A stretch of 64,000 bases of DNA. Source: Flexilinea sp. Lineage in GTDB: Bacteria > Bacillota > Clostridia > Oscillospirales > Oscillospiraceae. Where the stretch lies: the NCBI GenBank assembly GCA_963615825.1, contig CAVEIY010000001.1:3200-67199 (forward strand), written 5' to 3'. Position numbers and translations under genes: made by a program. A model generated the notes under the pieces. The model did not search any database. It had not been told where the DNA came from and worked only from the letters and a program-made list of their open reading frames with translations. This document shows, one piece after another, positions 12,717 through 28,610 of this stretch (its first letter is position 1; every line of letters starts with the position of its first letter).

Positions 12717-12728
12717 AACACCCTCCCC

Positions 12729-13919
12729 TTAGTTGGAGCTGGGAATGCCGTAATCCGGCATGGCGGTTTCGGGCTTCCCGCTTTTTCCCTGCGGCTTGCT
12801 GGTATCGGAATGCTCCATCTTTTTTGCAATCGCCTTGAGCAGCAAAGAGGACAGATAGGTTAGAATCAGATACAGCCCCGCTGCCACAACATACATCTCC
12901 AAGTCCCGGTAATAGATTCCCACCACGCCCTTGGTTTGGAACATCAGATCGGAAACACCCAAAACGCTCAGTACAGAGGAATCTTTGATGTTAATAATAA
13001 ATTCGTTGCCAATGGCAGGAATGGAGTTCTTTACCGCCTGCGGGAACACGACCTTTACCATCGCCTGCCACTGGGTCATCCCCAAGGAGCGTGCGGCTTC
13101 CATTTGACCGGCATCAATGGCTAAAATGCCGCCCCGCAGCACCTCGGCCAGATACGCCGTGGAATTCAGGGAGATGGTAACCAGGCCGGAGATGAAGAAG
13201 CTCCAGATGCGATTGATTTCCGTAACGCTCAGATTGGTGCGCTTGAACAGATTAAAAATCGCATAATAGAAAATCAGGGACTGCACCATCATAGGGGTGC
13301 CGCGGATTACAAAAATATAGAAGCTTGCAAATTTATTTGCAACAATTTTCAGAAATTTGACCAGATCATTATCCCGCTTGTCCGGAGCTTGAATCCGCAG
13401 GAACACCATGAGGATGGACAGCAAAAATGCAATTGCCGTGCCGAACAGTGCCAGGCGAACGGTTGTCCATACGCCGGTCAAAAAAGTGGAACCGTTTCGG
13501 CTGGTCATGTATACCAATCCGCCAAAGAAGTTCTGCGGGTTGCTTTCCGCGTGGGCATAAGACCCGATGAGATAAATCAGGTTCAGAATCCACCGATCCA
13601 GCACAAACAGGAAACAGGCGATACTGACCAGATAGGACAGGTATCGGCTTCCCTTTACAATGGCGGGACGTTTCATAACCGTAGCGTCATAGGTATTCCA
13701 GTGCGTCCATTTTATCAATAAAGCTACAGCGCTGACTGCGAGAAACAACCAGCAAATCGCCGCCATAAGGATTCCGACCGGAGCATGGATGCCAAGAAAG
13801 CTATAGGGATTTGGTGCGGAATGCCACATGCTCAGCCCCAGCAGGGCGACCACACTGCCGCCCAAGTAGACGTACCGATGATCCCGGGTAACGAAGTTTC
13901 CATGGGATGTTGTTTTCAT
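12729..13919 (-). CDS. Amino acid ABC transporter permease with long N-terminal membrane extension
   Basis: C-terminal half is a His/Glu/Gln/Arg-type permease (LAEVLRGGILAIDAGQMEAARSLGM). Start moved to ATG 13919 behind GGAAGGAGG. Confidence 0.8.
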   Translation of the reverse strand: MKTTSHGNFVTRDHRYVYLGGSVVALLGLSMWHSAPNPYSFLGIHAPVGILMAAICWLFLAVSAVALLIKWTHWNTYDATVMKRPAIVKGSRYLSYLVSIACFLFVLDRWILNLIYLIGSYAHAESNPQNFFGGLVYMTSRNGSTFLTGVWTTVRLALFGTAIAFLLSILMVFLRIQAPDKRDNDLVKFLKIVANKFASFYIFVIRGTPMMVQSLIFYYAIFNLFKRTNLSVTEINRIWSFFISGLVTISLNSTAYLAEVLRGGILAIDAGQMEAARSLGMTQWQAMVKVVFPQAVKNSIPAIGNEFIINIKDSSVLSVLGVSDLMFQTKGVVGIYYRDLEMYVVAAGLYLILTYLSSLLLKAIAKKMEHSDTSKPQGKSGKPETAMPDYGIPSSN

Positions 13920-14009
13920 GCGATTGCCTCCTTCCATGCTGCGAAAAGTCGAATGCACCGGCTTTTCGCAGCATTTTTCCCGGATCGTGCCCTGTCCGGG
14001 GATTACACG

Positions 14010-14903
14010 TTACTGGGGCTGATTCGCCACTGCGGTATCCCACATTTCGTCGCGAGTGGCCTGATCTACGGTTGCCAGAACCTCGTTGACCTGTTCCAGC
14101 AGTGCGTCGTCAGACTTCCGAATGCCCACACAGGCGCCCTTGGAGGGAAGCTCAAAGCCGTTCCCATCCTCAAAGGTAATGACCTTGAAGTCGGGGTTGG
14201 CAGCCAGATAGCCGGAGGAGTTTTCTACGTTAATGACCAGCGCGTCGCAGGTGCCCTGCTGAAGCCGGGAAATCATGTCAGGAACGCTGCCCACGGGGGT
14301 CAGGTGGTTTACGTCGGGAATCTGGTCGATTACGGTATCCAGCGCGGTGCCCTGCTGGCCCAGTACAGCGGCACCGGCGAAGTCCTGAATCGAGGCCGCG
14401 TTTGCATACTGGGAATCGTTCATGACCATCATGCCGTAAATCGTTTCGTGGTAGGGATCGCTGAAGTTGATGGATTCCCGGCGCTCGGCGGTGTCCATCA
14501 TGCCGGCAATGATCGCATCAATCTGCCCCTGATTCAGCGCCGAAATCAGACCGTCCCAGCTCATCTTCACGATGACCAATTCCTTGCCCAGGCCTTCTGC
14601 AATTACCTGTGCAAACTGCACGTCATATCCTTCTGCATAAGCGCCTGCTACGTTCTCAATGGGCCAGTTGCTGTCGGTTGCTTCGCTTTCCTGCCAGTTG
14701 TTGGGCGCATAGGCACATTCCATTCCCACGCGGAACTGTTCGGTGGTTCCGGTTTCCGCCTGGCTTGCGGCGGCGACCGCTTCCGTCTGGGCAGTGGATG
14801 CGGCTGATGATGCATTGCTGGTGGTATTGCCGGAGCCACAGGCGGCCAGCGTCAGCGTCATTGCTGCTGCCAGCACGAGAGAGGTGATGTTTCTGAGTTT
14901 CAT
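14010..14903 (-). CDS. Amino acid ABC transporter substrate-binding lipoprotein
   Basis: Lipobox LTLAACGSG. Family-3 SBP body. First gene of the riboswitch-controlled operon. Confidence 0.85.
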   Translation of the reverse strand: MKLRNITSLVLAAAMTLTLAACGSGNTTSNASSAASTAQTEAVAAASQAETGTTEQFRVGMECAYAPNNWQESEATDSNWPIENVAGAYAEGYDVQFAQVIAEGLGKELVIVKMSWDGLISALNQGQIDAIIAGMMDTAERRESINFSDPYHETIYGMMVMNDSQYANAASIQDFAGAAVLGQQGTALDTVIDQIPDVNHLTPVGSVPDMISRLQQGTCDALVINVENSSGYLAANPDFKVITFEDGNGFELPSKGACVGIRKSDDALLEQVNEVLATVDQATRDEMWDTAVANQPQ

Positions 14904-14996
14904 TTGGTTTGCCTTCCTTTCTTTCTGTTCGGTTGCTATGCTTCCAAAACAGGCGCCGCCTGTTTTTTACGGTGTTTCATACATTGCGGCGCATAG

Positions 14997-15033
14997 AAAA
15001 AAGCCGTAAATGTTTTTGTGAAACATTTACGGC
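14997..15033 (-). terminator. Intrinsic terminator of the lysine-riboswitch expression platform
   Basis: Minus strand reads GCCGTAAATGTTT-cacaa-AAACATTTACGGC followed by TTTTTT. It lies between the aptamer and the SBP start codon. Confidence 0.8.
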
Positions 15034-15086
15034 TGCAATTTCTCCAAATATGCTGCACCAATGACCTCTTTGGGCCATTGGGTTCC

Positions 15087-15246
15087 GATAGCGCTCCACA
15101 ATCTGTGACAGTCCGGCGGATCTTATCCGACGACCCAGCAGAAAACAGTTCAGGTGCTGTTTTCAACTTCGGCAACGATCCCTTTCCCAAATCCCGGATT
15201 TCCTGCTCCAATGGAACTTGGTACTGATGAGCATTGCGCCTCTATC
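15087..15246 (-). promoter_or_regulatory. Lysine riboswitch (L-box) aptamer
   Basis: Minus strand reads GATAGAGGCGCaatgctcatcAGTAccaag..GGAGcagg..GGGAAAGGGatcgtTGCCGAAGttg...GCTGGGtcg...ACTGTCACagattGTGGAGCGCTATC. All hallmark L-box blocks appear in the right order, and P1 closes as GATAG/CTATC. Confidence 0.85.
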
Positions 15247-15288
15247 TTTTTGATCTTTCGATCAGTGCATGATTAAATTGTTGAAGAT

Positions 15289-15317
15289 AGAATACTCCTG
15301 TTTTATGCGCTTGTCAA
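15289..15317 (-). promoter_or_regulatory. Sigma-70-like promoter driving the L-box leader
   Basis: Minus strand has TTGACA (15317-15312), 17-nt spacer, TATTCT (15294-15289). Confidence 0.55.
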
Positions 15318-15660
15318 GAGAAAAATGTTATTTTTTTCGTAATTGTCTTTATTACGGTAAATTGCACAAGTTGTCTGCGGATAGAGCGTATGGATCCGGC
15401 GGATTGCCTGGTATGTGAAAAGGACAAAAGGCCGGAACAGGTCTATTGCTAGAGGAATGGCCGCTTCCGGATTTAATGAATTGGAAATTCCTTGCGACAC
15501 CCTAAAAGAAAAGTAACTGGAAACAATGTATTTTAATACATTATTTGATGCCGTTTTGGTGCGTTTTGATATTGGACAATGCAAGCATTCAATCTTATAC
15601 TGTAAATACAGGAAACACATATCTGGTGCAGCCCAGGTGTGGATGAAAGGAGAAAACACC

Positions 15661-17421
15661 ATGAAAAAAATACTTGCGCTCCTCACGGCACTGACTTTGC
15701 TGTGCAGCCTGTTTTCTGGCTGTGGACAGGAAGCGGCATCTGCAACGACAAGCAGAGCATCGGCTTCGTCGATCCAGGCGGAACCGGACGAGGCCCCCGA
15801 GGTTGAGCAGCCCTCGGCCAAGGAAGTGATATCGGCGGAAAGCAGCGAGGCACTCCCGGATGAGGAAACCTACTCCAAGTATGGCATCGACTTTGCCACA
15901 AAGTCCGGAAATCCCACCGAGGCAGCGGACATCCCTGTGGAGCTTCCTGTGACCGAGGATGACATCACAGCGTCCCTGTACATGATTATGTCCCCTGCGG
16001 TGATCGGAAATATCAATCAGCTTGCCGACGAAAACATCGCGTGGAAAACCTTCTGTGAGAGAACGGGTCTGAAATTGGACATCCATCTTGTGCATCCTGG
16101 CAATAAGGCTACAGAGGTTGCACTGATGCTTGCGTCTCAGGAATACTATGACGTTATGCAGGATGTTATCTCGGACTATACAGGTGGCGGCGATCAGGCA
16201 ATTGAGGATGAGTTTGTATATGATTTGACCGACACCATGAGAGAATACGCACCCAATTTCTTTGCCAAGATTACCTACAGTATGGATACCTATAATAAAG
16301 TTTGCACCGAATCCGGCAAGCTTGTTGGTTTTTCCAGAATTTCCAATGATCTGCTTCCTGAGAATGGACTGGCGATTCGCTATGATTGGCTCAGAGACAT
16401 AGGCATGGAGCTTCCCACTACAGTGGATGCGCTGCATGATGTTTTAACGGCCTTCAAGGAACAGGAGCATACCAATGCGGCTATGTGGCTGAATGGTACT
16501 GGTGTGTTTGAAACGGAAACGATTCTGAATGCGTATTATGGTGACGGCTCGTTCTATGTGAATGACGATGGCGTCGTTGGTTACGGCCCCATTGAAGATA
16601 GTTTCAAGGATTATTTAAAGACAATGGAACAGTGGTACAGGGAAGGGCTAATTTACCCGGATTTCTACACCAATGCAGATGATCTCCGAATTGAGGATGT
16701 CTCCCTGGTGGCATCTCAGAATATCGGTCTTGTTTCCACTGAGATCAATAAGCTCCAGACACTTAATGAGGTGGTCGAAGGCTCAGAGTGGGGGGCGCTT
16801 GGAACGGTGGTTCGGAATGAAGGCGATATGCTTCACACTGGCGGTACCTTTGCATACTATGCAGAAATGGTGGACATGGCGATTACAACCGCCTGCACAG
16901 ATCCGGAAACGGTATGCGCGGCATTTGACTATCTGTATACGGAAGAAGGTGCTTTGCTTGCTAACTATGGCGTTGAGGATGTAACGTTTGAATTTGATGC
17001 AGCCGGTACGCCGCAGTTTTCTGAGATGATGACCAATGATCCCAGCTCTGACCTGAAAACCATGATTCTGCTGAACTGCCTGGATATTGGACCCTATGTA
17101 AAGGATGTCTACCGTACACAGTCGACGCTTACGGATGCGCAGATCAAGGCCTATGAGATTTGGAATGATACCAGCATCAATGACCAGGCGTGGGAGATGC
17201 CGGCTAAGGTTTCGCTGACGACAGATGAAAGTGTTAGATACAGCAATCTGTATGCGGAGTTCCATGCATACTACCTTGAGATGGTTGATCAGTTTATCAT
17301 TGGCGCAGTTGACATTGACACAGAATGGGAGAACTATGTGGATACCATGAACAGCCTTGGCGTTCAGGATTCCGTAGAGATTTACCAGGTGGCATATGAT
17401 CGGTATGCTGCTGGGAAATAA
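15661..17421 (+). CDS. Large extracellular solute-binding lipoprotein (family 1, LplA/LipO-like), orphan
   Basis: MKKILALLTALTLLCSLFSGCG lipobox. About 586 aa with an acidic/Ser-rich linker. Start moved to ATG 15661 behind AAAGGAG. No ABC permease or ATPase is adjacent. Confidence 0.75.
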   Translation: MKKILALLTALTLLCSLFSGCGQEAASATTSRASASSIQAEPDEAPEVEQPSAKEVISAESSEALPDEETYSKYGIDFATKSGNPTEAADIPVELPVTEDDITASLYMIMSPAVIGNINQLADENIAWKTFCERTGLKLDIHLVHPGNKATEVALMLASQEYYDVMQDVISDYTGGGDQAIEDEFVYDLTDTMREYAPNFFAKITYSMDTYNKVCTESGKLVGFSRISNDLLPENGLAIRYDWLRDIGMELPTTVDALHDVLTAFKEQEHTNAAMWLNGTGVFETETILNAYYGDGSFYVNDDGVVGYGPIEDSFKDYLKTMEQWYREGLIYPDFYTNADDLRIEDVSLVASQNIGLVSTEINKLQTLNEVVEGSEWGALGTVVRNEGDMLHTGGTFAYYAEMVDMAITTACTDPETVCAAFDYLYTEEGALLANYGVEDVTFEFDAAGTPQFSEMMTNDPSSDLKTMILLNCLDIGPYVKDVYRTQSTLTDAQIKAYEIWNDTSINDQAWEMPAKVSLTTDESVRYSNLYAEFHAYYLEMVDQFIIGAVDIDTEWENYVDTMNSLGVQDSVEIYQVAYDRYAAGK

Positions 17422-17471
17422 AAGTCCAATCGACAATATAATAAAATCCATATTAGAAAGGTGAATGAATT

Positions 17472-18308
17472 ATGGAAAATGTTACAATAGAGGAGCTGCA
17501 AAAGCAAATTGCCGCACTTCAGGACAAGCTTGACCGAGTGGATGATTACCGCAAGATTATGAACGTCTACTCGAAGTTCTGGCACTACTATGAAATGGGA
17601 AAGTATGAAGAGCGCTTTGACCTCATTGCGCATCATACGCCCGGTGTTACGGTGGAAATTGGCGCGCGGGGTGTATTTGAAGGCCGTGAGAGCGCACATC
17701 GGAGCTTGGTTGACACGGAACTCGGCTTTGAGCACAGCCATGCAGTGGGGATGAAGCGGCTGTTCCCTGATGTCGATTTTCCCAGTGAGCATGCCGGTAT
17801 GCTGGAGTCAACTCTGATCGGTTCTCCGATTATTGAAATAGCGGAGGATCGCAAAACGGCCCACGGTGTATTCATTGCGCTGCAGTCTGTAGCAAAAACC
17901 CACGATAATGATCCAAAGCCGCGTTCTATGTGGATTTGGTGGAAAACAGCAATTGACTTTGTAAACGAGGATGGAACCTGGAGAATCTGGCATTTCAACA
18001 ACAACCCCTATTATGCAACAGGCAGCACAGAGGACTGGGTGACCAATGCCGTCCATATGGCTGGACTGAGAATGCCCGATGATCCCGAGGACTATGTTCC
18101 CTCTGGCGGCCCCGGTGGCCCTACTCCGAAGAAGGATGCAGAAAAGGGCAATCAGACCGGCGGCCATAGTCACTACACCACTGCGGATCGTCCCACAACG
18201 AGCTTCTATCGCTCCTATCGGATTACCGCATTGCCGCTGGAAATCCCGCTACCCGAACCGTATAAGACCTTCGATGAAAGCTTCAGCTATGAGCCTGAAA
18301 AGTCCTGA
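17472..18308 (+). CDS. SnoaL_4/NTF2-like (BaiE-like fold) protein with Pro-rich C-terminal tail
   Basis: N-terminal helix EELQKQIAALQDKLDRVDDYRKIMNVYSKFWHYY, then a cone-fold body (...DGTWRIWHFNNNP). Paralog of 24157..24834. Confidence 0.55.
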   Translation: MENVTIEELQKQIAALQDKLDRVDDYRKIMNVYSKFWHYYEMGKYEERFDLIAHHTPGVTVEIGARGVFEGRESAHRSLVDTELGFEHSHAVGMKRLFPDVDFPSEHAGMLESTLIGSPIIEIAEDRKTAHGVFIALQSVAKTHDNDPKPRSMWIWWKTAIDFVNEDGTWRIWHFNNNPYYATGSTEDWVTNAVHMAGLRMPDDPEDYVPSGGPGGPTPKKDAEKGNQTGGHSHYTTADRPTTSFYRSYRITALPLEIPLPEPYKTFDESFSYEPEKS

Positions 18309-18390
18309 ATAAGAAATTTCGGGAGTGCCATAAGCGTTAGCGGCACTCCCGATTTTGTTCGGACACTTAATATGTAAGGAGAAAGGGAAT

Positions 18391-19743
18391 ATGACAAACG
18401 ACGCAAAACGAGAAACTGTAAAATTAGCAGATATGGAGCCGAAGTTTCGTGGGCGTGCGGTGGGAATCATTATTGTGCTATTAATTCTCATGTTTTTAAA
18501 CAGCAGCGCTGCTTCTGATTCTATTAACGTAATCACAAGCTATTTCCCAGAGACGTTTGGCTGGTCAGATACGCAGGTTGCGCTTCCGCAGACCATCGGA
18601 AGCCTGATCTCGATTCCGCTGTTGGCACTGGCGGCGGTCCTTTATCACAAGTTTTCCACCCTTCGGGTGCTGCGCGTTTCTTTTTTGATTCAGGGGATTT
18701 GTGTCATTCTGATTGGCGTTACTTGCGGTCATTATTGGGGATATGCGACGGCTGCAATCGTTGTACGTATGTGCTCCACGGTCAATCAGTTTGGTACATA
18801 TAAGCTCTGTACGGACTGGTTTAACTCCTGGCGCGGCCGGATACTTGGCATTGTAACCATTGCGGGTCCCATTAGTTCTGCGTCTACTGCCGGGGTGTTG
18901 ACCGCAGGCAATGCTGTGTTGGGATTTTCTACAACGTTTGTTGTGTTTGGAATTGTTGTGCTGGTTCTTTGCGTTGCCAGTACGTTTATCAGCAAATCCT
19001 ATCCTGAGGATTACGGTCTGGCGGTGGATGGTGTGGTTCGCACACCGGAGGAACTGGCTGCGCTGGACGGCGATGTGAACAGCCCCAGCATTTGGACCCT
19101 GAAGGCGATGATCCGCACCAAGGAATACTGGATTGTTACCTTTGCCATTGCGTTTTTTGCAATGGCGATGTCGGGAACCATGCAGATGTGGATCCGGATT
19201 ACGGTTATGGGAAAAGGGCTGGATATGGGACTTGCCATTGTGGCACTTTCCATCGGCTCGCTGCTGGGCATTCCGATTTCTATGATTTCCGGTGTAATCG
19301 ACGATAAATTCGGTACCAATAAGGCTGCCTTTTTTGTCTGGATGTTTATGATCGTACTGATGCTCTGTATGATTTTCATTACGCCTGCCTGTGCTTGGCT
19401 GGTCTATGTGGCTACTTTCTGCGTGGGCGCAGTGACGGGGTGCTTCCCGAACATCAACCCTTCTATTAAGGCGTATACCTTTGGCAGAAAAGCATTTGTG
19501 ACGGCCAATAGCGTTTCGGCAATGATTGAAAACCTGTTTATGAGTGGCGCGCTGATTTTCCTGTCGATTATCAGTGATTTGACAGGCTCCTTTACCCCCG
19601 CCTATGTCATCCATGTCATCATTACTGCAATCTTTGCTGTTCTGCTGTTGACCATCAAGCCCATGGCACCAGAGGTGATTGGCGTTGAAGCGGCAAAAGA
19701 AATTGTAAAGAGAGCGACAGAGCCTCGTCATAAAGGCAGCTAA
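18391..19743 (+). CDS. MFS transporter (oxalate/formate-antiporter-like subfamily)
   Basis: About 12 TM. Paralog of 22873..24114 (shared WRGR.LGI.TI motif). Start moved to ATG 18391 behind AAGGAGAAAGGG. Confidence 0.8.
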   Translation: MTNDAKRETVKLADMEPKFRGRAVGIIIVLLILMFLNSSAASDSINVITSYFPETFGWSDTQVALPQTIGSLISIPLLALAAVLYHKFSTLRVLRVSFLIQGICVILIGVTCGHYWGYATAAIVVRMCSTVNQFGTYKLCTDWFNSWRGRILGIVTIAGPISSASTAGVLTAGNAVLGFSTTFVVFGIVVLVLCVASTFISKSYPEDYGLAVDGVVRTPEELAALDGDVNSPSIWTLKAMIRTKEYWIVTFAIAFFAMAMSGTMQMWIRITVMGKGLDMGLAIVALSIGSLLGIPISMISGVIDDKFGTNKAAFFVWMFMIVLMLCMIFITPACAWLVYVATFCVGAVTGCFPNINPSIKAYTFGRKAFVTANSVSAMIENLFMSGALIFLSIISDLTGSFTPAYVIHVIITAIFAVLLLTIKPMAPEVIGVEAAKEIVKRATEPRHKGS

Positions 19744-19752
19744 TTTATCAAA

Positions 19753-19795
19753 AGCGCTGTGTATGGTAGTAAGTTACGATACACAGCGCTTTTCT
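19753..19795. terminator. Bidirectional terminator between the MFS and LysR genes
   Basis: AGCGCTGTGTAT-14 nt-ATACACAGCGCT, flanked by AAA and TTTT. Confidence 0.75.
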
Positions 19796-19798
19796 TGG

Positions 19799-20746
19799 TT
19801 AGATAGGGGGGTGATAATCCTCAGGGTGCATCACAGAGGAAAGGTCTTTACAATAATCCGTCAGAATGGATAAAAACAGATGATCCTGTTTTGATTGATA
19901 GCGATTTCGCAAGACCGCAATTCCAATGTCCATTTTTGCACAGGAGTCCGAAATAATGCGCATTTCGATGCCGGGGATCCTGGGATTATCCAAGCAGTTC
20001 TCCAGCTTGAGATGATTGACCAGATTGTGCTGGGAGATAAATCCGATTCCCACATTATTGCGGACCAGCTTGAAAATGAGAGAAGGATCACTTTCCTCAA
20101 ATACAATATTGGGGGAGGCGCCAACTGTGGAAAAACAGTCCTCCATCAGCGGACGGATGCCATAGCCGTGTGGGGTGCTGACAATCGGTTCGCCCACGAG
20201 CTGAGACAGGGAAAGCACTTCATATTTAGACAAGGGATGCTGCTCTGGAAGAAGTGCCAGAATGCTGTCGTTCAACAGGTGTGTCCACTGAATCCGATCA
20301 CTTTCAATCCGGTCTGCGGAAATGACATAGTCAACAATGCTGTCGTTCAGATATGCCATAGCCTGATTTCGCTGTAGAAAGAGCTGTGACAGCTTAAATT
20401 GATTTTGAAGGATCACATACCGGTCCAAGAAGAATGTCAGAATTCCCGGGATGGTAATTCCAACGTGAATGGTATGGGTTCCGTTGCCCTGAAGGTCCTG
20501 AATTTCCCGCTGGGCCTCCTCTAATTGCAGAAAAACCTGTTTTGCTCTCGCAAGAAAGACACGGCCAAAATCGTTGAGATAGATTTGACGTCCAATGCGA
20601 TCAAACAGCCGCACCCCTAAATCGCTTTCCAGCCGTGCAATGGTTCGACTGAGCGAGGACTGGGAGATAAACAGCTCTTCAGCGGCCTTTGTCATATTGC
20701 CGGATTCAGCAATCTTGATGAAGTAGCGCATTTGCAGAAGCTCCAT
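19799..20746 (-). CDS. LysR family transcriptional regulator
   Basis: MELLQMRYFIKIAESGNMTKAAEELFISQSSLSRTIARLE winged HTH plus a LysR substrate-binding domain. Start moved to ATG 20746 behind AGGAGGA. Divergent from the ene-reductase gene. Confidence 0.9.
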   Translation of the reverse strand: MELLQMRYFIKIAESGNMTKAAEELFISQSSLSRTIARLESDLGVRLFDRIGRQIYLNDFGRVFLARAKQVFLQLEEAQREIQDLQGNGTHTIHVGITIPGILTFFLDRYVILQNQFKLSQLFLQRNQAMAYLNDSIVDYVISADRIESDRIQWTHLLNDSILALLPEQHPLSKYEVLSLSQLVGEPIVSTPHGYGIRPLMEDCFSTVGASPNIVFEESDPSLIFKLVRNNVGIGFISQHNLVNHLKLENCLDNPRIPGIEMRIISDSCAKMDIGIAVLRNRYQSKQDHLFLSILTDYCKDLSSVMHPEDYHPPI

Positions 20747-20931
20747 ATTGCGTGTCCTCCTGAATACTGATTTCATTTATTATATCAAATGCGCTGAGAA
20801 AATCAATCAATTATCAGATGATTAATGCACTAAAATACATAACAAACATAAAAAACGGCACCCGGATATATTGGACTTATGGTAATTTTCAATTTATCAT
20901 AATGATAGAAAAGATAGATAGGAGGGGGAAA

Positions 20932-22860
20932 ATGAACCCATATCCACATTTGTTCTCTCCAATCCGTGTCGGACCGCTCCGGTTTAAAAACCGAATTATT
21001 GCAGCGCCGACACAGATTCGTCAGAAGGACTCAAACGGTCACATTAATGATTACGGAATTGCATATCAGGCCCGTAAAGCACGTGGTGGCGCTGCGCAGG
21101 TGACAATTGGAGATACGCCGGTTGAACCGCGTTATGGTGCAACACAATTTAACTCCTTTCAGCTGGATACCCCTGGTGCGCTGGCCTCCTTGTCGGAAGC
21201 GGCGGCAGCAATCCGGCAGTATGGAGCAATTCCCAGCCTTGAACTGAGCCATGGCGGAAAAATCGCAGTGCCGGCGTTTAATCATGGCAATGAGCCAATT
21301 GGCCCGATGGATGCGGTCAAGCCGGACGGGACAAAAATTCACGCAATGGATCAGACCATGATTGACTACATCGTGGGAAAATATGCAGAGGGTGCAAAAA
21401 CAATTCAGAAGTGCGGCTTTGAAATGTGTACTGTACATGCCGGTCACGGTTGGCTGCTGTCACAGTTCCTTTCACCACGATCTAATCAGCGGAAAGACCA
21501 GTATGGCGGCAGTCTGGAAAACCGAGCAAGACTCTGCGTGGAGGTAGTGGACGCAATTAAAGCAGCCTGTGGAAAGAATTTTGTAATTGAGCTTCGCATC
21601 AGTGGAGATGAATTTGTCGAGGATGGATTCCACCTGGAGGATATGATTGAATTTTGTAAAATGATTGAGACGAAGGTGGATATTTTGCATGTATCAGCCG
21701 GGCTCCACGGTGTCCCATCGGGTCTTATGCGGATGTTCCCGTCTAATTTGCTGCCCCATGGCTGCAATGTCTATCTGGCAGAGGCGATCAAAAAGAATGT
21801 CCATATTCCGGTGGCAACGGTGGGAGGAATTTCCTCCCCGGAAGAAGCCGAAGATATTATTGCTTCAGGGAAGGCAGACTTTGTAAGCCTTGCGCGCGCT
21901 CTGATTGCAGATCCCGATTTTCCAAACAAGGCACGGCATGGCATTCCGGTGCGTCCCTGCCTGCGCTGTCTCAACTGTCTGAAAAGCATGAACGATTGCA
22001 GGCATCTATCCTGTGCGGTAAACCCAACTGTAGGCAGCGAACATCGCCTTGGAAAGAAAGCGATGCCAACTGTGTCCAAGAAGTTGCTGGTCATTGGCGG
22101 AGGACCTGCGGGGATGAGCGCAGCCATAACTGCCCGGCAGCAGGGACATCAGGTAATTCTCTGCGAGAAAGCCGGAAGGCTGGGAGGACTACTGAACCAT
22201 GTGGATACGGATCCACGAAAGGACGATTTGAAGCAATATCGGGATTATCTTGTGGGCCAGACACAGGCCAGCGGTGCGGAGATTCAGCTGAATACCAATG
22301 TGACAAACGAGATGATTGCGTCGTTCCAGCCAGATGCAGTGATTTGCGCCATCGGATCGTCGCCCATTCTGCCGCCGATTCCGGGACTTGAAGCGTCCGG
22401 TGCCATTTCGGCAATGAGCGCGCATGAGAAAGACGCCGAACTTGGCGCACGTGTTGCGATAATCGGTGGCGGTCTTGTGGGCTGTGAAACTGCACTATAT
22501 CTTGCGGATTTGGGCCATACGGTTACTATTTTGGAGATGGCTCCTGCCATTGCGCAGGAGGATGCTCCGCTGCATCGAATGGCGTTGATGCAGGAGCTTG
22601 GAAGCCGTATTCAGATCTATACCGGACACCGCTGTACTGGAATTACAGAAGTCGGCGTACAGGCAGAAGCGGCGGATGGCACGATGGTGACGATTCCGGC
22701 GGATACGATTGTTTACGCGGCCGGAATGCGAGCGAAAACCGAAGAAACGGACACGCTTTATACCGCCGATATAGACTTTTACCCAGTGGGCGATTGCAAC
22801 CGCGCGAGAAAGATTCATGATGCGGTAACAGAAGGCTATTTTGCAGCGCTGGCGCTTTAG
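20932..22860 (+). CDS. NADH:flavin oxidoreductase, OYE-type TIM barrel + 4Fe-4S + FAD/NAD(P) domains (2,4-dienoyl-CoA reductase / enoate reductase / BaiCD-BaiH architecture)
   Basis: VHAGHGWLLSQFLSPRSNQRKDQYGGSLENRARL (OYE core). CLRCLNCLKSMNDCRHLSC (Fe-S Cys cluster). VIGGGPAGMSAA and IIGGGLVGCETA dinucleotide folds. Start at ATG 20932 behind AGGAGGGGG. Confidence 0.85.
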   Translation: MNPYPHLFSPIRVGPLRFKNRIIAAPTQIRQKDSNGHINDYGIAYQARKARGGAAQVTIGDTPVEPRYGATQFNSFQLDTPGALASLSEAAAAIRQYGAIPSLELSHGGKIAVPAFNHGNEPIGPMDAVKPDGTKIHAMDQTMIDYIVGKYAEGAKTIQKCGFEMCTVHAGHGWLLSQFLSPRSNQRKDQYGGSLENRARLCVEVVDAIKAACGKNFVIELRISGDEFVEDGFHLEDMIEFCKMIETKVDILHVSAGLHGVPSGLMRMFPSNLLPHGCNVYLAEAIKKNVHIPVATVGGISSPEEAEDIIASGKADFVSLARALIADPDFPNKARHGIPVRPCLRCLNCLKSMNDCRHLSCAVNPTVGSEHRLGKKAMPTVSKKLLVIGGGPAGMSAAITARQQGHQVILCEKAGRLGGLLNHVDTDPRKDDLKQYRDYLVGQTQASGAEIQLNTNVTNEMIASFQPDAVICAIGSSPILPPIPGLEASGAISAMSAHEKDAELGARVAIIGGGLVGCETALYLADLGHTVTILEMAPAIAQEDAPLHRMALMQELGSRIQIYTGHRCTGITEVGVQAEAADGTMVTIPADTIVYAAGMRAKTEETDTLYTADIDFYPVGDCNRARKIHDAVTEGYFAALAL

Positions 22861-22872
22861 GATGGCGATTTT

Positions 22873-24114
22873 ATGACAAAAACAAAGAATAAAAAATTTC
22901 TCATTCACGGAGCAGGAATCATATTTGTTTGTTTTTTCATGCAATATTTTTATTCCTGTTTACCCGGAGACAATCTGAATGTGCTGCAAACCTATCTGCC
23001 GGAGCTGCGAGGGTGGACAACCCTGCAAATTACAACCCCGGTTACCATTGGCGCGCTGCTGGCGGTACCGGGGACGCTGGTGTTTGGCACTGCCATTGTA
23101 AAGAAGGGGCCAAACTTTGTTATTATTCCATCCATCCTTTTGATGGCGATTTGCCAGGCAGCAATTGCGGTTTCTGATCGTCTGATTGTATATGCAATTG
23201 CCATGTGCCTGATTCGGCTGCTGATTCAGGTTGTAAGCCTTGGCATGACGACCTTGATTGCAAATTGGTTTGTAACCTGGCGCGGAAGAGCACTCGGAAT
23301 CATTACGATTGGATCACAGTTTAACACGGCCACATCTGTCGCACTGCTCACCAAAGGGTGTGATGCATTGGGCTTCCGTACCTCGTATTTGATCCTGAGC
23401 GGAGCAATTGCCGGCCTGGCGGTACTGACAATGCTCTTGTCCAGGGATAACCCACGTGCATTTGGACTGAATCCCGATGGTGCAGAGCAGGAGCAGTTCA
23501 CAACTGCGTCCCAGGTAAACTCGGAGGCAGTCTGGCCGCTGAAACGTATTTTTACATCCTGGGGTACATGGGTATTGATTATCAGCATGGGGTTTTTGAC
23601 CTTTATTATCAAAGCGGTAATGCCCAATTTCATGCCAAGAATGCTTGCTGTAGGCTTCCCGAAAGACTTGACGCTGATGCTCTTGACTTTTGCAACCGTA
23701 TGCGGCATGCCGCTTAGCTATCTGTTTGGCTGGATCAATGACCGATATGGTGCGCCAAAGGCTTGTATTACCCTGGGCATTGCCTATATCATGACAGTGC
23801 TGTCCTTCCGATTTGCACAGCCGGGGATGGAATGGCTGCTGTTCTTTGCTGTGCTCGGGATTGGCTGCATTACTGGCGGTACTGCCAGCCTGTATCCGGC
23901 ACTTGCCATGCACATTTATGGCCAAGCACATTTTGCACATGTCAACCGTTATGTGATGACGATTCAAAATATTATCGTTGCCTTTGCAGTTTCCTTTATG
24001 AGCGCAATTCAGACTGCTACAGGCTCCTTGAATGGTGCCTTTGATGTGCTGCTGATAATGGCTGTGCTTGCGACAGGACTGCTGTTTACCGTTCGGACCC
24101 AAAAGAACGTATGA
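22873..24114 (+). CDS. MFS transporter (paralog of 18391..19743)
   Basis: 413 aa, about 12 TM. 12 nt downstream of the reductase stop. Confidence 0.8.
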   Translation: MTKTKNKKFLIHGAGIIFVCFFMQYFYSCLPGDNLNVLQTYLPELRGWTTLQITTPVTIGALLAVPGTLVFGTAIVKKGPNFVIIPSILLMAICQAAIAVSDRLIVYAIAMCLIRLLIQVVSLGMTTLIANWFVTWRGRALGIITIGSQFNTATSVALLTKGCDALGFRTSYLILSGAIAGLAVLTMLLSRDNPRAFGLNPDGAEQEQFTTASQVNSEAVWPLKRIFTSWGTWVLIISMGFLTFIIKAVMPNFMPRMLAVGFPKDLTLMLLTFATVCGMPLSYLFGWINDRYGAPKACITLGIAYIMTVLSFRFAQPGMEWLLFFAVLGIGCITGGTASLYPALAMHIYGQAHFAHVNRYVMTIQNIIVAFAVSFMSAIQTATGSLNGAFDVLLIMAVLATGLLFTVRTQKNV

Positions 24115-24156
24115 TCGCCGGGGCCTTGTCCACCGGACAGAAAAGGAGAGATACAG

Positions 24157-24834
24157 ATGTCAGTGTTAACTGCAGAACAAAGACTTGCCAGGGTAGAGGC
24201 TTATATTGCGATTTCCAACGTCATGGGGAAATATGTATTCCATCGCATGAATGAAAATCTACCGGCGGTAACGGCGCTTTTTTCCCACCGGGATGACCTG
24301 CGGGTTGAAATGCCGTCGGGGACCTATACCGGCCCGAATGCGGCCTATCGCTGCTTCGAGGTGGACCATGCTGTGGATCTCAGCGCTGACCCGGCGCTTG
24401 TGATCCATGACGTCAATACACCGGTGATTGAGGTTGCTGCGGATTGTAAAACAGCCAGGGGCGTGTGGATTTCTCCCGGCCTGGCTACGGCGTCTATGCC
24501 CACAGGGAAAAAGGGGCTATGGGCCTGGGTGAAATATGATTGTGACTTCTTTCTGGAAGAGGACGGCTGGAAGATATGGCATATGCGCAAGTATGAGGTA
24601 TTTACGGTGCCGACAGATAAATCGTGGGTGGATGAGGACCCGATGGGAATGATGGTGCCGTCAAAATCGGATAATGGCACGGCTGCACCTCCCCCGCCGA
24701 AGCCCTTGCGCAGCAATGACCTGCCTGCTGGCATCAGTACAAAATATAATCCGAAAAAACGCGTTCCTGCCATTCCCGTCCCCCCGGAGCCATTTGAAAC
24801 CTGGCCTGAGCGCACACAGGAGGGAAACGAATGA
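24157..24834 (+). CDS. SnoaL_4/NTF2-like (BaiE-like fold) protein with Pro-rich C-terminal tail
   Basis: RLARVEAYIAISNVMGKYVFH...EEDGWKIWHMRKY. Tail is AAPPPPKPL...PVPPEPFETWPE. ATGA overlap with the next gene. Confidence 0.55.
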   Translation: MSVLTAEQRLARVEAYIAISNVMGKYVFHRMNENLPAVTALFSHRDDLRVEMPSGTYTGPNAAYRCFEVDHAVDLSADPALVIHDVNTPVIEVAADCKTARGVWISPGLATASMPTGKKGLWAWVKYDCDFFLEEDGWKIWHMRKYEVFTVPTDKSWVDEDPMGMMVPSKSDNGTAAPPPPKPLRSNDLPAGISTKYNPKKRVPAIPVPPEPFETWPERTQEGNE

Positions 24835-26582
24835 AGGTTTTTAAAGTTGTGGAAACCGAATGGGTTCTGGAAGATACCACAGAGCTGTTTGGACTTGTGA
24901 TTCGCGAAAATGCAAAGCTCTCTGCTCCACCGGGGAAGCAGCTTACTATGACGCTCAACGGCGAAAATGTGCCAATTGTACCTGGCACCTATGAGGGCGA
25001 TATTGTGCTCTCGGTTACGGATGATATTCCGATTCACGCTGTCTGCGATGCGGTTTTCCGCAGTGCCCTATACGTCGAGGACGGAAAGGTTGTGCCGGAG
25101 AAATCGGTTCTTGCGGCAGTGACTGGTGGAACAGTGGCAGATGGTGAGGCGATGGGCATTGCGATTACTAGCAGCGAAGAGAATTTTAACGGTGTTATTG
25201 TTGCAGGCGATGGCGAATATACCATTCAAAATGCTGAAATCCATTTCCATGGGAACGGAAGCAATGATTTTATTGGCCAGGGTGCAGGAATTATGACCAC
25301 TGGGGCAGGAAAGCTCACCATCAATCGTTCGCACCTAACAACGCATGGCGCAGCTCGCGGTACAATATTTAGCGGTGAACACGGAACGCTTGTTGTAAAC
25401 GACTGCGTGATTGAAGGAAAGCCCGGGGTGCTGCCGCCAGACTATGTGGACAGTATCGAGCCTGGTGGAATGCGCTGTGTGCCCTGGATGTTGGGCCTAC
25501 GGGGAAACTGCCGTGCCACCAATTTGGCGGATTATACCACAGCCTATTTTAATCGCTGTAAATGCACCTCAGAGAGCTGGGGCGTTATGTCTACAGACGG
25601 TGTCAGCCAGGTCCGTTCCTACATAAAGGACTGCGATATTCGTATTACCGGAAATAGCGGATATGGTGCATTTGCGCTGCTGGATACGGTTGTGACACTG
25701 GATCACTCCATGATTACAGTCCCGGACTATGGTATGGTCAGTTCCATGGCAAACGCTACCTTTGTGGTCAAAAATGGCACGGTTGTCCAGGCGGGACGGT
25801 TCGGCGGTATGAGCTATCGTTTGGTAGATGGCCTGTTTGATATTCAGCCGGGTTGTGAGATACATGCCGGAGAGACTGCGTTCCTGACAAAGGGCTGCCC
25901 CTGTACCTATCAGATTGAAGATGCGGTGGTTGAATCCGGGAGAAAGATTTTGCTTCAGATGATGGATACGGATGATCCCTTTAATCCAGCGGGATCCTAC
26001 TCTGATCCCGTTGACAATGAGCAGCCGATTGAAGGACGGGATCTTACAAAGACGGTTCGCAGTGAGGATTGTTTTGTGATTCTGAAGAATACAGAGATTG
26101 AGGGCAGCATTTACAACGCAACCAGTGACTTGAAGTTTGAGTTTATTCCGCTGAAGCCGCTGCCCGGAGAACCCGGCGGTCCTCCCATTGAGCCGCTGCC
26201 TGATGGAACCATTCCCAAATTCTCCAGAATGATGGGAAATGGTCCGATGAATTTGTCTGTCTCGCTGCAGGGCTCGACGCTAACCGGCAGCATTACCTCT
26301 GCTAAAGCCACCCATCGAGTTCCGAAGATTGATAAGACCAACTGCGAAGAACTAGGCGAGGTCAACAATACCCCGCGGCCTGCGATCAATAACGGCGTTG
26401 TGGTGGAATTGGACGGCACTTCTACCTGGACGATTGATGGCACCAACTATTTAAATAAGCTGATCCTTGCGGAAGGTGCCAAGGTTCTTCGGCGCGATGG
26501 CAGCGTGCCGTCGATGACCGTAAACGGCAACCCCGCTGAGTTTGCTGCGGGAAGCTATGTTGGCAGAATTATAATCGCCTAG
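24831..26582 (+). CDS. Hypothetical 583-aa cytoplasmic protein, predicted beta-helix-like repeats (paralog A)
   Basis: No signal peptide or TM. Repeated G-x-G..[IV].N..[IV] units (NGVIVAGDGEYTIQNAEIHFHGNGSNDFIGQGAGIMTTGAGKLTINRSHLTTHG...). I recognise no motif. Translationally coupled to the SnoaL gene. Confidence 0.7.
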   Translation: MKVFKVVETEWVLEDTTELFGLVIRENAKLSAPPGKQLTMTLNGENVPIVPGTYEGDIVLSVTDDIPIHAVCDAVFRSALYVEDGKVVPEKSVLAAVTGGTVADGEAMGIAITSSEENFNGVIVAGDGEYTIQNAEIHFHGNGSNDFIGQGAGIMTTGAGKLTINRSHLTTHGAARGTIFSGEHGTLVVNDCVIEGKPGVLPPDYVDSIEPGGMRCVPWMLGLRGNCRATNLADYTTAYFNRCKCTSESWGVMSTDGVSQVRSYIKDCDIRITGNSGYGAFALLDTVVTLDHSMITVPDYGMVSSMANATFVVKNGTVVQAGRFGGMSYRLVDGLFDIQPGCEIHAGETAFLTKGCPCTYQIEDAVVESGRKILLQMMDTDDPFNPAGSYSDPVDNEQPIEGRDLTKTVRSEDCFVILKNTEIEGSIYNATSDLKFEFIPLKPLPGEPGGPPIEPLPDGTIPKFSRMMGNGPMNLSVSLQGSTLTGSITSAKATHRVPKIDKTNCEELGEVNNTPRPAINNGVVVELDGTSTWTIDGTNYLNKLILAEGAKVLRRDGSVPSMTVNGNPAEFAAGSYVGRIIIA

Positions 26583-26599: not shown

Positions 26600-28399
26600 T
26601 TGCCGACGGGGAAGCCAATGGGTTCCCTGTCGGCTGGGAAACCGGCTGAGAAAGGATGCATATACTTGCAGAAATTCCGAGTGATTGAGCAGACCGTTGT
26701 AATTGAAGAAACAACCAGATTGTTTGGATTAAAGCTTGCCCCCGGAGCGGAACTTAAAGCGCCTGACGGAAAGCTTCTTACCATGACCTATAACGGAATA
26801 CAGGTAAACCCGATACCTGGCACCTATGAAGGTGATATTGTGCTCACCGTAACAGAGCCGATTCGGGTGGGAACGATGGCGCAGTCCGACCTTAGAACAG
26901 CCATCTGTATTGGAGAGAATGGACTGGTGCCCGAAAAGTCGGTTCAGGCTGCGGTGCTTTGTGGAACCGTTAGAGAACGAGAGATTTCCAATTTAAAAGT
27001 ATCGAGTCAGGGAGACTGCTTCTCTGCGCTCTACATTGATTCTGCGCAGGATTATGTGATAAATGATGCAGTGATCGAGTGTATCGGAAATGGAGAGAAT
27101 GAATCGGTGGGCGAAGGCGCAGGAATCATTACGGCGGGAACCGGAAAGATCACTATGAATCGGTCTGCAATTACAGTCCGAGGAGCAGCACGAAGTGCTT
27201 TGTTTGGCGGTGGTCATAGCCGGTTGGAAGTGAATGATTCAACCATATATACGTCCGGCGGTGTGTTACCCTACGATTATCAGGATTCCATTGCAGCAGG
27301 AAAAATGAAACGAGTCCCATGGATGCTGGGACTTCGGGGCAATAGTCGTGCAACGAACCTGGCGGAATGCGCAGAAGCGGTGTATAATCGCTGCACCATT
27401 ACGGCCGCAGAGTGGGGAGCCATGTCTACAGATGGTGTGGAGCGTTGTAGACTGTACTTGAAGGATTGCGATATTCGAGTCACTGGCCCCAGCGGCTATG
27501 GCACATTTGCCCTGTTGGATACGGTCAATACCATAGATCACTGCCGGGTGAATGTTCCGGATTATGCGGCGATTGTGGCAAATGGACCGGCCAGTACGGT
27601 AATTACCGGAGGATCTGACGTCCATGCAGGACGATTTGGGGTAATGTGCTTCCGCAATTCTGGAATTGTGATGGTAAACGGAGACAGCCAAATGGAATCG
27701 GGCGAGGCAACCTTTGTGGTAAAAGGCTGTTCGACCCGATTCGAGGTGGAGAATGCTGTATTGAAGCCGGGAAATGGAACGATCCTTCAGGTAATGGATA
27801 CCGATGACCCGAGAAACCCCCAAAAGTACTTTGTGGATAATGATGAGCCGGATAAAAAGAATCCGGAGCGCGATTTGACAGCCGCAGATGAGGAGGCGGT
27901 CCGCGCCATATTCCGGAATATGACCCTGGTGGGCAACTTCTTTAACGGAACGACCAATCGCAAGTATGATACCGGGCCGGAGTTGGGCGATCCGCATGGA
28001 CCAGGAGGCCATGGTGGGCCAGGTATGCCGCCTCCACCTAAACCGGATGAGAAGCCGGCGGAGCAGGCGAAAAATATGCAGATTACGCTGAGCAAGGTTC
28101 AGTTGACTGGCATGATTTCTGCGACTACAGTTCGGCATATCGTGAAAAAAATTTCAAAGGAGAACTGTGAAGAACTGGGAAGGATAATCAATATCCCAGC
28201 AATGGCGGTGAATAATGGCGTTATTGCAGTATTGCAGAATCAGTCGGTTTGGACTCCGCAAGGCACCAGTTATCTTACAAAACTGAGCGTGGATGAAAGC
28301 AGCTCCATCGAACATGCAGCTATGACAGTAGATGGGATTCCCACTAAACTGGAACCCGGGAGCAGCTATGTTGGAAGCATTATCATTACTGCGGTTTAA
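26600..28399 (+). CDS. Hypothetical ~580-599-aa protein, paralog B of 24831..26582
   Basis: Shares blocks with paralog A (PGTYEGDIVL.VT, VPWMLGLRGN.RATNL, WG.MSTDG, KDCDIR.TG.SGYG.FALLDTV, MDTDDP.NP, NCEELG). Start is uncertain: TTG 26600, ATG 26618 or TTG 26666. Alignment with paralog A favours 26666. Confidence 0.7.
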   Translation: MPTGKPMGSLSAGKPAEKGCIYLQKFRVIEQTVVIEETTRLFGLKLAPGAELKAPDGKLLTMTYNGIQVNPIPGTYEGDIVLTVTEPIRVGTMAQSDLRTAICIGENGLVPEKSVQAAVLCGTVREREISNLKVSSQGDCFSALYIDSAQDYVINDAVIECIGNGENESVGEGAGIITAGTGKITMNRSAITVRGAARSALFGGGHSRLEVNDSTIYTSGGVLPYDYQDSIAAGKMKRVPWMLGLRGNSRATNLAECAEAVYNRCTITAAEWGAMSTDGVERCRLYLKDCDIRVTGPSGYGTFALLDTVNTIDHCRVNVPDYAAIVANGPASTVITGGSDVHAGRFGVMCFRNSGIVMVNGDSQMESGEATFVVKGCSTRFEVENAVLKPGNGTILQVMDTDDPRNPQKYFVDNDEPDKKNPERDLTAADEEAVRAIFRNMTLVGNFFNGTTNRKYDTGPELGDPHGPGGHGGPGMPPPPKPDEKPAEQAKNMQITLSKVQLTGMISATTVRHIVKKISKENCEELGRIINIPAMAVNNGVIAVLQNQSVWTPQGTSYLTKLSVDESSSIEHAAMTVDGIPTKLEPGSSYVGSIIITAV

Positions 28400-28578: not shown

Positions 28579-28610
28579 CCGCTGATTTCATAAGAAATCA
28601 GCGGCTTTTG
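28579..28610 (+). terminator. Intrinsic terminator ending the catabolic island operon
   Basis: CCGCTGATTTC-ataa-GAAATCAGCGG followed by CTTTTG. A near-identical copy lies at 48433-48464. Confidence 0.7.

Follow-up and report, generated by a model that had tools for sequence, protein, structure and literature searches.

The question raised by this locus is what an uncultured gut bacterium of the Oscillospiraceae does with an iron–sulfur (Fe–S) flavin reductase that stands among transporter genes, SnoaL_4 genes and a divergent LysR gene. The locus lies in a 64,000-nucleotide stretch of contig CAVEIY010000001.1 (assembly GCA_963615825.1), which is called the window below. A first-pass annotation of the window had delimited a block of six genes at 17472–24834 and had compared its families with BaiE, BaiCD/BaiH and BaiG of bile-acid 7-dehydroxylation. 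All six genes are present as open reading frames (ORFs) in the order and of the families described, with every Pfam assignment above its gathering score, but the block was drawn too narrowly. A lipoprotein gene on its left and two beta-helix genes (bhA and bhB) on its right are conserved together with it and had been missed. The whole island is a conserved, probably co-regulated nine-gene cluster centred on the reductase and occupies about 15.5–28.6 kb of the window (Table 1). The three added genes shift the reading away from bile acids. With a probability of roughly 0.55, the island is a two-operon regulon, governed by its LysR regulator, for the uptake and reductive transformation of an exogenous organic compound. 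For the substrate, phenolic or acidic compounds of plant origin (hydroxycinnamates, stilbenoids, lignan-like dimers or conjugates of these) are favoured, and not bile acids or steroids.

The arrangement of the block is not due to chance; it is kept in other genomes, namely at loci L002–L007 and L089. L002–L005, which are human-gut metagenome contigs, have all nine genes without any change of order, with about 87% identity for bhA and about 86–87% for the reductase. At L006 and L007 (reductase 74% and 71%), the first of the two major facilitator superfamily (MFS) genes, MFS(1), is missing and bhB is inverted and placed upstream. L089 (reductase 66%) also lacks MFS(1), and here bhB has moved within the island and the pair of lipoprotein and first SnoaL_4 gene (SnoaL1) is inverted. 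LysR is still divergent from reductase, MFS(2), second SnoaL_4 gene (SnoaL2) and bhA at L089, and its position and orientation relative to the reductase operon are unchanged at all of these loci. Synteny and Pfam thus bear out the earlier proposal of a unit in which a divergent LysR gene accompanies an old yellow enzyme (OYE)/4Fe–4S/FAD reductase, an MFS transporter and a SnoaL_4 protein. MFS(2) is present at every syntenic locus and is the constant component of the reductase operon; MFS(1), found at L002–L005, is a variable and dispensable one. The lipoprotein gene (91% identity to L002, 72% to L006) is always located directly upstream of SnoaL1, the best-conserved protein of the island. In L002, L006 and L089, respectively, identity is 99, 92 and 80% for SnoaL1, 84, 76 and 61% for SnoaL2, and 80, 68 and 58% for the bhB orthologues. 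The relatives of the host are uncultured Oscillospiraceae metagenome-assembled genomes (MAGs), and several of the source samples are Hadza stool. At L002–L005, the closest relatives, positions 14059–21752 hold a mobilisable element with integrase, relaxase and MobC immediately after bhB and, past it, a second Fe–S flavoenzyme paired with another orphan binding lipoprotein.

Both operons of the island have short intergenic gaps, and the ATGA overlap predicts that bhA is translationally coupled to SnoaL2. A terminator-like hairpin with T runs on both strands closes the reductase operon at 28579–28604, past which the G+C content drops from 51% to 40% or less, and an Rfam scan finds no RNA element inside the island. 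The regulator has the features of the LysR type, with HTH_1 and LysR_substrate domains, a divergent layout and a dyad near the −35 of its target, and it scores under every NCBIfam equivalog cut-off. A 16-bp palindrome stands before each operon. The left copy precedes the −35 element in a promoter-like site (15573–15601) by about 32 bp, and the reductase-side copy lies immediately 5′ of the −35 element in a second such site (20872–20900). In the window, ATGYAYTNNAATRCAT is matched perfectly at two places and no more, one before each operon; by chance 0.44 matches are expected, those with one mismatch included. Across four loci the LysR/reductase intergenic region has diverged, and what is conserved is only one dyad and the −35 region. 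In the relatives, too, the exact palindrome is confined to these promoters: it is present at both positions in L002–L005 and at the reductase-side site in L006, L007 and L089. Since it precedes each operon and occurs nowhere else exactly in the window, it fits LysR control of both operons, which the regulator would exert through the two palindromes as candidate operators. A third copy, ATACATTTAAATACAT, with one mismatch, is located at 47341–47356 between a Wzz gene (46179–46955) and a tyrosine-recombinase gene (47445–48326); this copy is probably due to chance.

Table 1. Genes and candidate control sites of the nine-gene island, in coordinates of the window.
Feature	Position	Strand	Properties
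16-bp palindrome ATGTATTTTAATACAT	15526–15541		Candidate LysR operator, left (lipoprotein) operon
Lipoprotein (AlgQ-like solute-binding protein)	15661–17421	+	586 aa; lipobox LFSGC; 50 bp before SnoaL1
SnoaL1, SnoaL_4(1)	17472–18308	+	278 aa; Pfam SnoaL_4 40.4 bits (gathering 24), 3.4e-10
MFS(1)	18391–19743 (alternative start 18355)	+	450 aa; MFS_1 88.8 bits (gathering 33.4), 4.4e-25
LysR	19799–20746	-	315 aa; ORF to 20776, likely start 20746; HTH_1 2e-21, LysR_substrate 1.7e-20
16-bp palindrome ATGCACTAAAATACAT	20825–20840		Candidate LysR operator, reductase operon
Reductase	20932–22860	+	642 aa; ORF from 20818, true start 20932; identical to database protein P0121
MFS(2)	22873–24114	+	413 aa; MFS_1 72.7 bits (gathering 33.4), 3.3e-20; 12-bp gap from reductase
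SnoaL2, SnoaL_4(2)	24157–24834	+	225 aa; Pfam SnoaL_4 42.3 bits (gathering 24), 8.9e-11
bhA	24831–26582	+	583 aa; 4-bp ATGA overlap with SnoaL2 stop; cytoplasmic right-handed beta-helix
bhB	26618–28399	+	593 aa; 35 bp after bhA; 44% identity to bhA; identical to P0038
Terminator-like bidirectional hairpin	28579–28604		Stem 11–12 bp, T runs on both strands; closes reductase operon

The lipoprotein is a family-1 solute-binding protein (SBP) by fold and sequence and by its lipoprotein signal: 13 of the 18 members of its family contain SBP_bac_1, and the lipobox cysteine, Cys21, is invariant. Its family profile matches AlgQ2 with E = 6.8e-69 and the binding proteins 5GUB and 5GX8 with 1e-63, and the similarity to AlgQ1, AlgQ2 and Smon0123 extends over about 460 residues. 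The AlgQ proteins bind alginate oligosaccharides, and the 5GUB and 5GX8 proteins unsaturated chondroitin disaccharides. No cognate ATP-binding cassette (ABC) permease or ATPase is found beside the lipoprotein gene in the island or at the syntenic loci, and the flanks hold only amino-acid ABC systems. The two MFS proteins share 28% identity and are old paralogues rather than recent duplicates. For both, the nearest curated models are carriers of lactate, of conjugated bile salts and of oxalate/formate, all well under their cut-offs; MFS(1) scores best with the L-lactate carrier SfMCT (70 bits, cut-off 320), followed by the conjugated bile-salt MFS carrier (51, cut-off 400) and the oxalate/formate family.

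The proteins bhA and bhB are cytoplasmic members of an undescribed and unannotated family, in which they form two separate orthogroups. About 190 homologues of bhA are found, all of them labelled ‘hypothetical’, and the family occurs in gut Oscillospiraceae, in peat and soil Acidobacteriota and Actinomycetota, and in Desulfobacterales. Close homologues have no signal peptide and many distant ones have one. The AlphaFold2 (AF2) model of bhA is a right-handed beta-helix with a mean confidence (pLDDT) of 93.4. Foldseek gives only generic beta-helix matches for it (pertactin, fucoidan and alginate lyases) with template modelling (TM) scores of at most 0.3, so that no function can be transferred. 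A PDB sequence search with bhA gives no match, and neither protein belongs to a curated family in Pfam or NCBIfam, where only sub-threshold Beta_helix scores of 17 and 16 bits (threshold 25.9) are obtained. The likeness to carbohydrate-active families (pectate lyase, GH28, CE8, PL6) is one of fold, without membership. Residues R228, D256, Y278, D299, R323, K354 and D381/D382 of bhA are conserved, and the spacing of these Asp, Arg, Lys and Tyr residues by about 22–27 residues, or roughly one coil, suggests that they form a binding or catalytic groove.

These components lead to the strongest alternative, in which the island handles uronate-containing oligosaccharides. The lipoprotein would bind unsaturated oligouronates, the beta-helix proteins would be cytoplasmic lyases, hydrolases or esterases, the MFS proteins would move carboxylates, and the Fe–S flavoenzyme would be an enoate reductase acting on the 4,5-unsaturated uronate or a derived 2-enoate. 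The AlgQ1/AlgQ2 match of the SBP profile (7e-69) argues for it, together with the fucoidan, PL6 alginate and capsule lyases among the best fold matches of bhA, the resemblance of the coil-spaced residues to those of glycan-active beta-helix enzymes, and the lactate- and oxalate/formate-like MFS proteins. Furthermore, a binding lipoprotein gene is the commonest partner of the beta-helix genes, being found within 400 bp at 14 of 73 non-orthologous beta-helix loci drawn from species-representative genomes. On the other side, bhA and bhB belong to no curated family and superpose poorly on known folds; no ABC permease, sugar kinase, isomerase or gene of the 2-keto-3-deoxygluconate (KDG) pathway is found at any syntenic locus; LdpA-like NTF2 proteins, to which both SnoaL_4 proteins belong as described below, have no known role in uronate metabolism; and we know of no reductive route for unsaturated uronates. 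We consider this alternative unlikely. Plant phenolics or organic acids are suggested by the kinship to LdpA and by the neighbours of the sister reductase clade, and acidic glycans by the SBP and the beta-helix fold; both are therefore kept, with the former weighted somewhat higher.

Both SnoaL_4 proteins fall into the SnoaL_4/NTF2-like dehydratase group (PF13577). At 25% identity to each other, they are old paralogues and not recent duplicates. Each has a long C-terminal extension with a common PPEPYxTF/W tail (PLPEPYKTF in SnoaL1), and the two may form a heteromer. Several distant members of the SnoaL1 family carry signal peptides. Single-sequence searches of the PDB with these proteins are near noise, and LdpA is resolved only by family profiles. 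The SnoaL2 profile finds only LdpA (8ABT, 8ABU and 8ABV; E = 2.5e-15), and BaiE is not matched at E up to 10 either by the single sequence or by the profile. The SnoaL1 profile finds LdpA (8ABV) with 5.9e-22 and BaiE with 4.4e-3, the latter over the N-terminal helix only. The AF2 model of SnoaL2 (pLDDT 76.8) has three helices and a curved sheet, with a C-terminal arm of low confidence. Its Foldseek matches 1–7 are LdpA (from 2.9e-9), and BaiE follows at rank 11 (1.4e-6); LinA and scytalone-dehydratase-like proteins are also found, with LinA and BaiE about three orders of magnitude weaker than LdpA. Both SnoaL_4 proteins thus resemble LdpA and not BaiE.

LdpA is a trimeric cofactor-free lyase that converts a lignin beta-1 dimer into lignostilbene via a quinone methide, and its motif II, Glu143-Tyr165-Gln170, is described as exclusive to it; BaiE has a His–Asp dyad and a Tyr oxyanion hole (PMC9942872). 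In the family of SnoaL2, residues Y26, Y57, H71, H84, E92, D96, Y127 and D130 are invariant, so a pocket free of conserved polar residues, named in the first-pass annotation as a reason to abandon its proposal, is not what is found. At the positions of LdpA Tyr35, Asp40, His97, Glu143 and Tyr147, SnoaL2 has Tyr26, Met31, His84, Ala123 and Tyr127, and at those of motif II it has Ala123, Lys145 and Thr150. By this alignment SnoaL2 keeps the general NTF2 dehydratase core (a Tyr26/Tyr127 oxyanion hole and His84) and has lost the LdpA-specific motif II. SnoaL1 has Thr114 at His97, Ile at Glu143 and Thr159 at Tyr147, with the equivalents of Tyr35 and Asp40 not placed confidently; it appears to have lost the canonical core and is predicted to be catalytically degenerate. 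The His97–Asp40 dyad (motif I) and motif II are thus present in neither protein, and the oxyanion tyrosines are kept in SnoaL2 only. An alignment to the Tyr/Asp/His set of BaiE (a protein of about 170 aa, in which these residues are Tyr30, Asp35 and His83) had also been proposed: the Tyr and His are kept in SnoaL2 and the Asp is replaced by Met31, and SnoaL1 lacks the His (Thr114). LdpA homologues in gut anaerobes are not found in the literature.

The bias towards plant compounds comes from the lignin-dimer substrate of LdpA, from the sister-clade context and from the occurrence of the beta-helix family in soil and peat. In a more specific version of it, the island and its relatives across phyla would process plant diaryls and compounds derived from lignin (beta-1-type dimers, lignans, stilbenoids, diferulates) by an anaerobic route that has gone unrecognised. 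Here, the LdpA-like NTF2 and beta-helix proteins would carry out a cofactor-free elimination that yields a stilbene or a quinone-methide-type alkene, the Fe–S flavoenzyme would reduce this alkene in place of the O2-dependent dioxygenase cleavage of aerobes, and orphan binding lipoproteins, each specific for its substrate, would feed the system. In this specific form the proposal is distinctly unlikely.

The reductase has the layout of an Fe–S flavoenzyme, with OYE/FMN, 4Fe–4S, FAD and NAD(P)H domains in one chain. Its Oxidored_FMN (191.7 bits, 2.7e-56) and Pyr_redox_2 (111.2 bits, 8e-32) domains score above gathering, and 103 of 103 homologues retain the 4Fe–4S motif C343-x2-C346-x2-C349-x11-C361. 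The enzyme is a member of the superfamily of FadH, 2-naphthoyl-CoA reductase (NCR), enoate reductase and the Bai enzymes. Judged by the cut-offs of curated hidden Markov models, it does not fall inside a clade of known function: it scores 449.7 bits with the BaiCD model (NF041087, cut-off 825), which is nevertheless its top-scoring NCBIfam model, 400.4 with long-form BilR (NF045599, cut-off 750) and 387.4 with mycofactocin OYE_2 (cut-off 793). The nearest solved structures are NCR (6QKG, 1.1e-69) and FadH (1PS9, 1.4e-64). A FadH in a beta-oxidation context was considered and rejected, as no CoA-related genes are found in the island or at the syntenic loci and the FadH alignment covers only residues 4–530.

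BaiCD and IsmB conserve a His-x2-His-x-Tyr motif (H206, H209 and Y211 in IsmB) that is expected of 3-oxo-delta4/5 steroid reductases. The reductase of the island has H169-A-G-H172-G-W174 instead, with Trp174 at the position of the catalytic Tyr. None of the 103 nearest background homologues departs from this Trp; it was rejected as a clade-specific mark, since HxxHGW is found throughout the surrounding branch. Identity to other reductases falls in steps, with at least 65% in its own clade, 56–59% in a sister clade and at most 49% in a large background. Own-clade reductases at 65–69% are still located beside SnoaL2 and beta-helix genes. In the sister clade, HST replaces HGW. Its conserved, uncharacterised cluster (L086–L088) includes an AcetylCoA_hyd_C-type CoA-transferase, a beta-keto-acid cleavage enzyme (BKACE), a second Fe–S flavoenzyme and a 3-hydroxyacyl-CoA dehydrogenase; at L086 an aldo-keto reductase is present too, together with LysR and SnoaL_4 genes in divergent orientation.

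These results bear directly on a minimal bile-acid or steroid module, in which a BaiE/BaiI-like dehydratase or isomerase would work without CoA chemistry alongside a BaiG-like importer and a 3-oxo-delta4 reductase of the BaiCD/BaiH kind. Such a module would be consistent with BaiCD as the top NCBIfam model of the reductase, with BaiE and BaiI being SnoaL_4 proteins (PMC10382948), with BaiE as a more distant fold relative of SnoaL2, with the gut habitat, and with IsmB and related Fe–S flavoenzymes, which in relatives of this lineage need no CoA to act on free sterols. Nevertheless it is very improbable. The reductase scores far under the BaiCD cut-off and has Trp174 for the catalytic Tyr; LdpA is a better match than BaiE to the SnoaL proteins by 3 to 17 orders of magnitude; steroid pathways offer no equivalent of the glycan-type lipoprotein or of the beta-helix proteins; and the same family toolkit is found in peat, soil and sediment bacteria. 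In addition, a Pfam scan of 15.5–28.6 kb gives no CoA ligase, no CoA transferase and no hydroxysteroid dehydrogenase (HSDH) that could make the 3-oxo group, and baiB, baiA and baiF are found neither there nor at L002–L007 and L089. The first-pass annotation had rightly stated that the rest of a bai pathway is absent and had called the substrate open. Its comparison with BaiE, BaiCD and BaiG holds at the level of superfamilies and breaks down below it, at the BaiCD and BilR cut-offs, at the HGW motif, at the LdpA-like SnoaL proteins and at the lactate- and oxalate/formate-like MFS proteins.

The family set is met again in other phyla and in habitats from gut and rumen to peat, soil and sediment, as indicated by the counts over the 73 loci and by gene arrays elsewhere. 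In Oscillospiraceae, Desulfobacterales and Acidobacteriota alike, beta-helix genes of this family stand beside genes for Fe–S and FAD ene-reductases, SnoaL_4 proteins, MFS transporters and orphan binding proteins. An Fe–S flavoenzyme gene is found within 400 bp at 8 of these loci (binomial P about 3e-5 when a generous 22 reductase copies per genome are assumed, the number in one MAG; PMC7371122). The underlying genome scan used a 12-sequence alignment, and clusters c4, c8, c19, c31 and c71 were left out as antisense ORF artefacts. In Desulfobacteraceae/Desulfobacterales MAGs, L062 (86–12796) and L063 (1288–20887) are same-strand arrays of beta-helix genes, each followed by a gene for a FAD_binding_2-type reductase with a ferredoxin domain. 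These arrays also hold MFS and Fe–S flavoenzyme (RED) genes, with SnoaL_4 in L062 only, in the form bh-FADreductase-bh-FADreductase-MFS-RED-SnoaL. L092 has a SnoaL–SBP–reductase operon that adjoins an SBP/beta-helix pair, with AraC regulators. It is very unlikely that the island is a set of mere neighbours, in which the reductase–MFS pair is a generic detoxifying ene-reductase unit and the SnoaL, beta-helix and lipoprotein genes are unrelated to it: some adjacency is indeed expected from so paralogous an enzyme family, and at many beta-helix loci the other families are absent, but the gene set, MFS(1) excepted at L006, L007 and L089, survives rearrangement in four diverged lineages, SnoaL2 and bhA are predicted to be translationally coupled, the palindrome is common to both operons, and in another phylum these families stand together on a single strand. 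In other Oscillospiraceae (L020, L022, L023 and L024), a beta-helix gene is found beside an orphan binding lipoprotein gene without an ABC permease, and the neighbours include the A and B subunits of a 3-oxoacid CoA-transferase and one or two 4-hydroxybutyrate-type CoA-transferases.

For the regulon of uptake and reduction that we favour, the gene content, protein families, cofactor motifs, synteny, shared palindrome and likeness to LdpA are established, and from them we infer the direction of flow, the order of reactions and the substrate as follows. The compound or its conjugate would be captured at the surface by the AlgQ-like lipoprotein and imported by an MFS carrier, or by a permease encoded elsewhere. 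In the cytoplasm, bhA, bhB and SnoaL2 would perform cofactor-free hydrolytic, eliminative or isomerising steps, in which His84 of SnoaL2 would act as the base and Tyr26/Tyr127 as the oxyanion hole; SnoaL1, with its core lost, may serve as a partner without catalytic function or may have an activity of another kind. The outcome of these steps would be a C=C bond, either uncovered or newly formed, in conjugation with a carbonyl, a carboxylate or a 4-hydroxyphenyl group. The Fe–S flavoenzyme would then reduce this bond with NAD(P)H, with electrons passing from FAD via the 4Fe–4S cluster to FMN, and the reaction would serve as an electron sink. The substrate or an intermediate would be the effector of LysR at the two palindromic operators.

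Several points weigh against this regulon. No component has a characterised close relative, and the substrate is not directly indicated. SnoaL2 has neither Asp40 nor the Glu-Tyr-Gln motif II, which makes the LdpA reaction itself unlikely. The uptake role of the lipoprotein is left unexplained by the lack of an adjacent ABC permease, and its closest solved relatives bind acidic oligosaccharides, not phenolics; beta-helix folds, too, are usually glycan-active. By eye, no strict T-N11-A LysR box is found in the palindrome. The chance estimate for the adjacency of beta-helix and reductase genes depends on the assumed copy number, and such neighbours are often convergent and not operonic.

The surroundings of the island are of other kinds. 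Its left edge is a lysine riboswitch (RF00168, 103.6 bits) at 15081–15252 on the minus strand, which leads a minus-strand amino-acid ABC operon (10558–14903), unrelated to the island, that encodes a family-3 binding protein, permease and ATPase as well as an M20 peptidase. On the right, a minus-strand exopolysaccharide/capsule locus of low G+C content (34–40%) extends over 28900–47000, with genes for GT2, Caps_synth, two WbsX glycosyltransferases, an FrhB-like Fe–S protein, Wzz and a CpsD-like ATPase. Beyond it a recombinase gene is followed by a DltA/DltB-like pair (49614–53020).

Several of the gut reductions best known for their relevance to the host are the work of Fe–S flavoenzymes, among them the reduction of bile acids, bilirubin, cholesterol, steroid hormones and flavonoids. 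The island offers a defined case among them, with a fixed gene set and with a regulator and a candidate operator that could be used for inducer screening. It joins an NTF2 enzyme nearest to a lignin-dimer lyase with an unannotated beta-helix family which, in three phyla or more, accompanies ene-reductases. Assignment of the substrate would give this family a function and might show how plant phenolics or acidic glycans are processed by strictly anaerobic, fibre-associated Oscillospiraceae. The tempting bile-acid reading is corrected as unsupported.

The general kind of cluster is already known, since 849 gene-cluster families with Fe–S flavoenzymes have been catalogued in gut Clostridia, most of them with an MFS transporter and most of them unassigned (Andreu, Fischbach and Medema 2020, PMC7371122). 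With the known clusters (bai, BilR, IsmB, OsrB, Fcr and the enoate reductases), the island shares PF00724 plus PF07992, the 4Fe–4S motif, an MFS gene in the cluster and an anaerobic host of the gut Bacillota. A described cluster of its composition was not found in the literature, and it differs from the architectures in the text of PMC7371122 by two LdpA-like NTF2 proteins, two beta-helix proteins, an orphan AlgQ-like lipoprotein and the lack of a curated equivalog. The bai operon of Clostridium scindens also has the three superfamilies side by side and the same domain layout of the reductase. In contrast to it, the island has no baiB, baiA or baiF, a reductase at about half the BaiCD cut-off with HxxHGW for HxxHxY, SnoaL proteins of 225–278 aa with a C-terminal arm, additional beta-helix and SBP genes, and a LysR-type regulator.

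LdpA (LsdE) of Novosphingobium and Sphingobium (8ABT–8ABW) is the best sequence and structure match of both SnoaL proteins and is similar in length and in its C-terminal arm, and the equivalents of its Tyr35, His97 and Tyr147 are kept in SnoaL2. However, identity is only about 20%, Asp40 and motif II are absent, and SnoaL1 appears to be without the whole catalytic set. Whereas LdpA is paired with an O2-dependent lignostilbene dioxygenase, the island belongs to an anaerobic member of the Bacillota and has a reductase as partner. With the beta-helix carbohydrate-active enzymes (PL1, PL6, PL9, GH28, CE8 and FdlA), the proteins bhA and bhB share the fold, as modelled by AF2 for bhA, and coil-spaced conserved acidic and basic residues, but they differ in family membership, superpose poorly, have cytoplasmic close homologues and stand in a reductase context. 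The island lipoprotein finally has a strong profile similarity to AlgQ1 and AlgQ2 and is anchored as expected in a Gram-positive bacterium. Unlike these proteins, it stands apart from any nearby permease or ATPase gene and is predicted to be co-transcribed with an NTF2 protein, and its relatives are paired with a reductase or a beta-helix protein.

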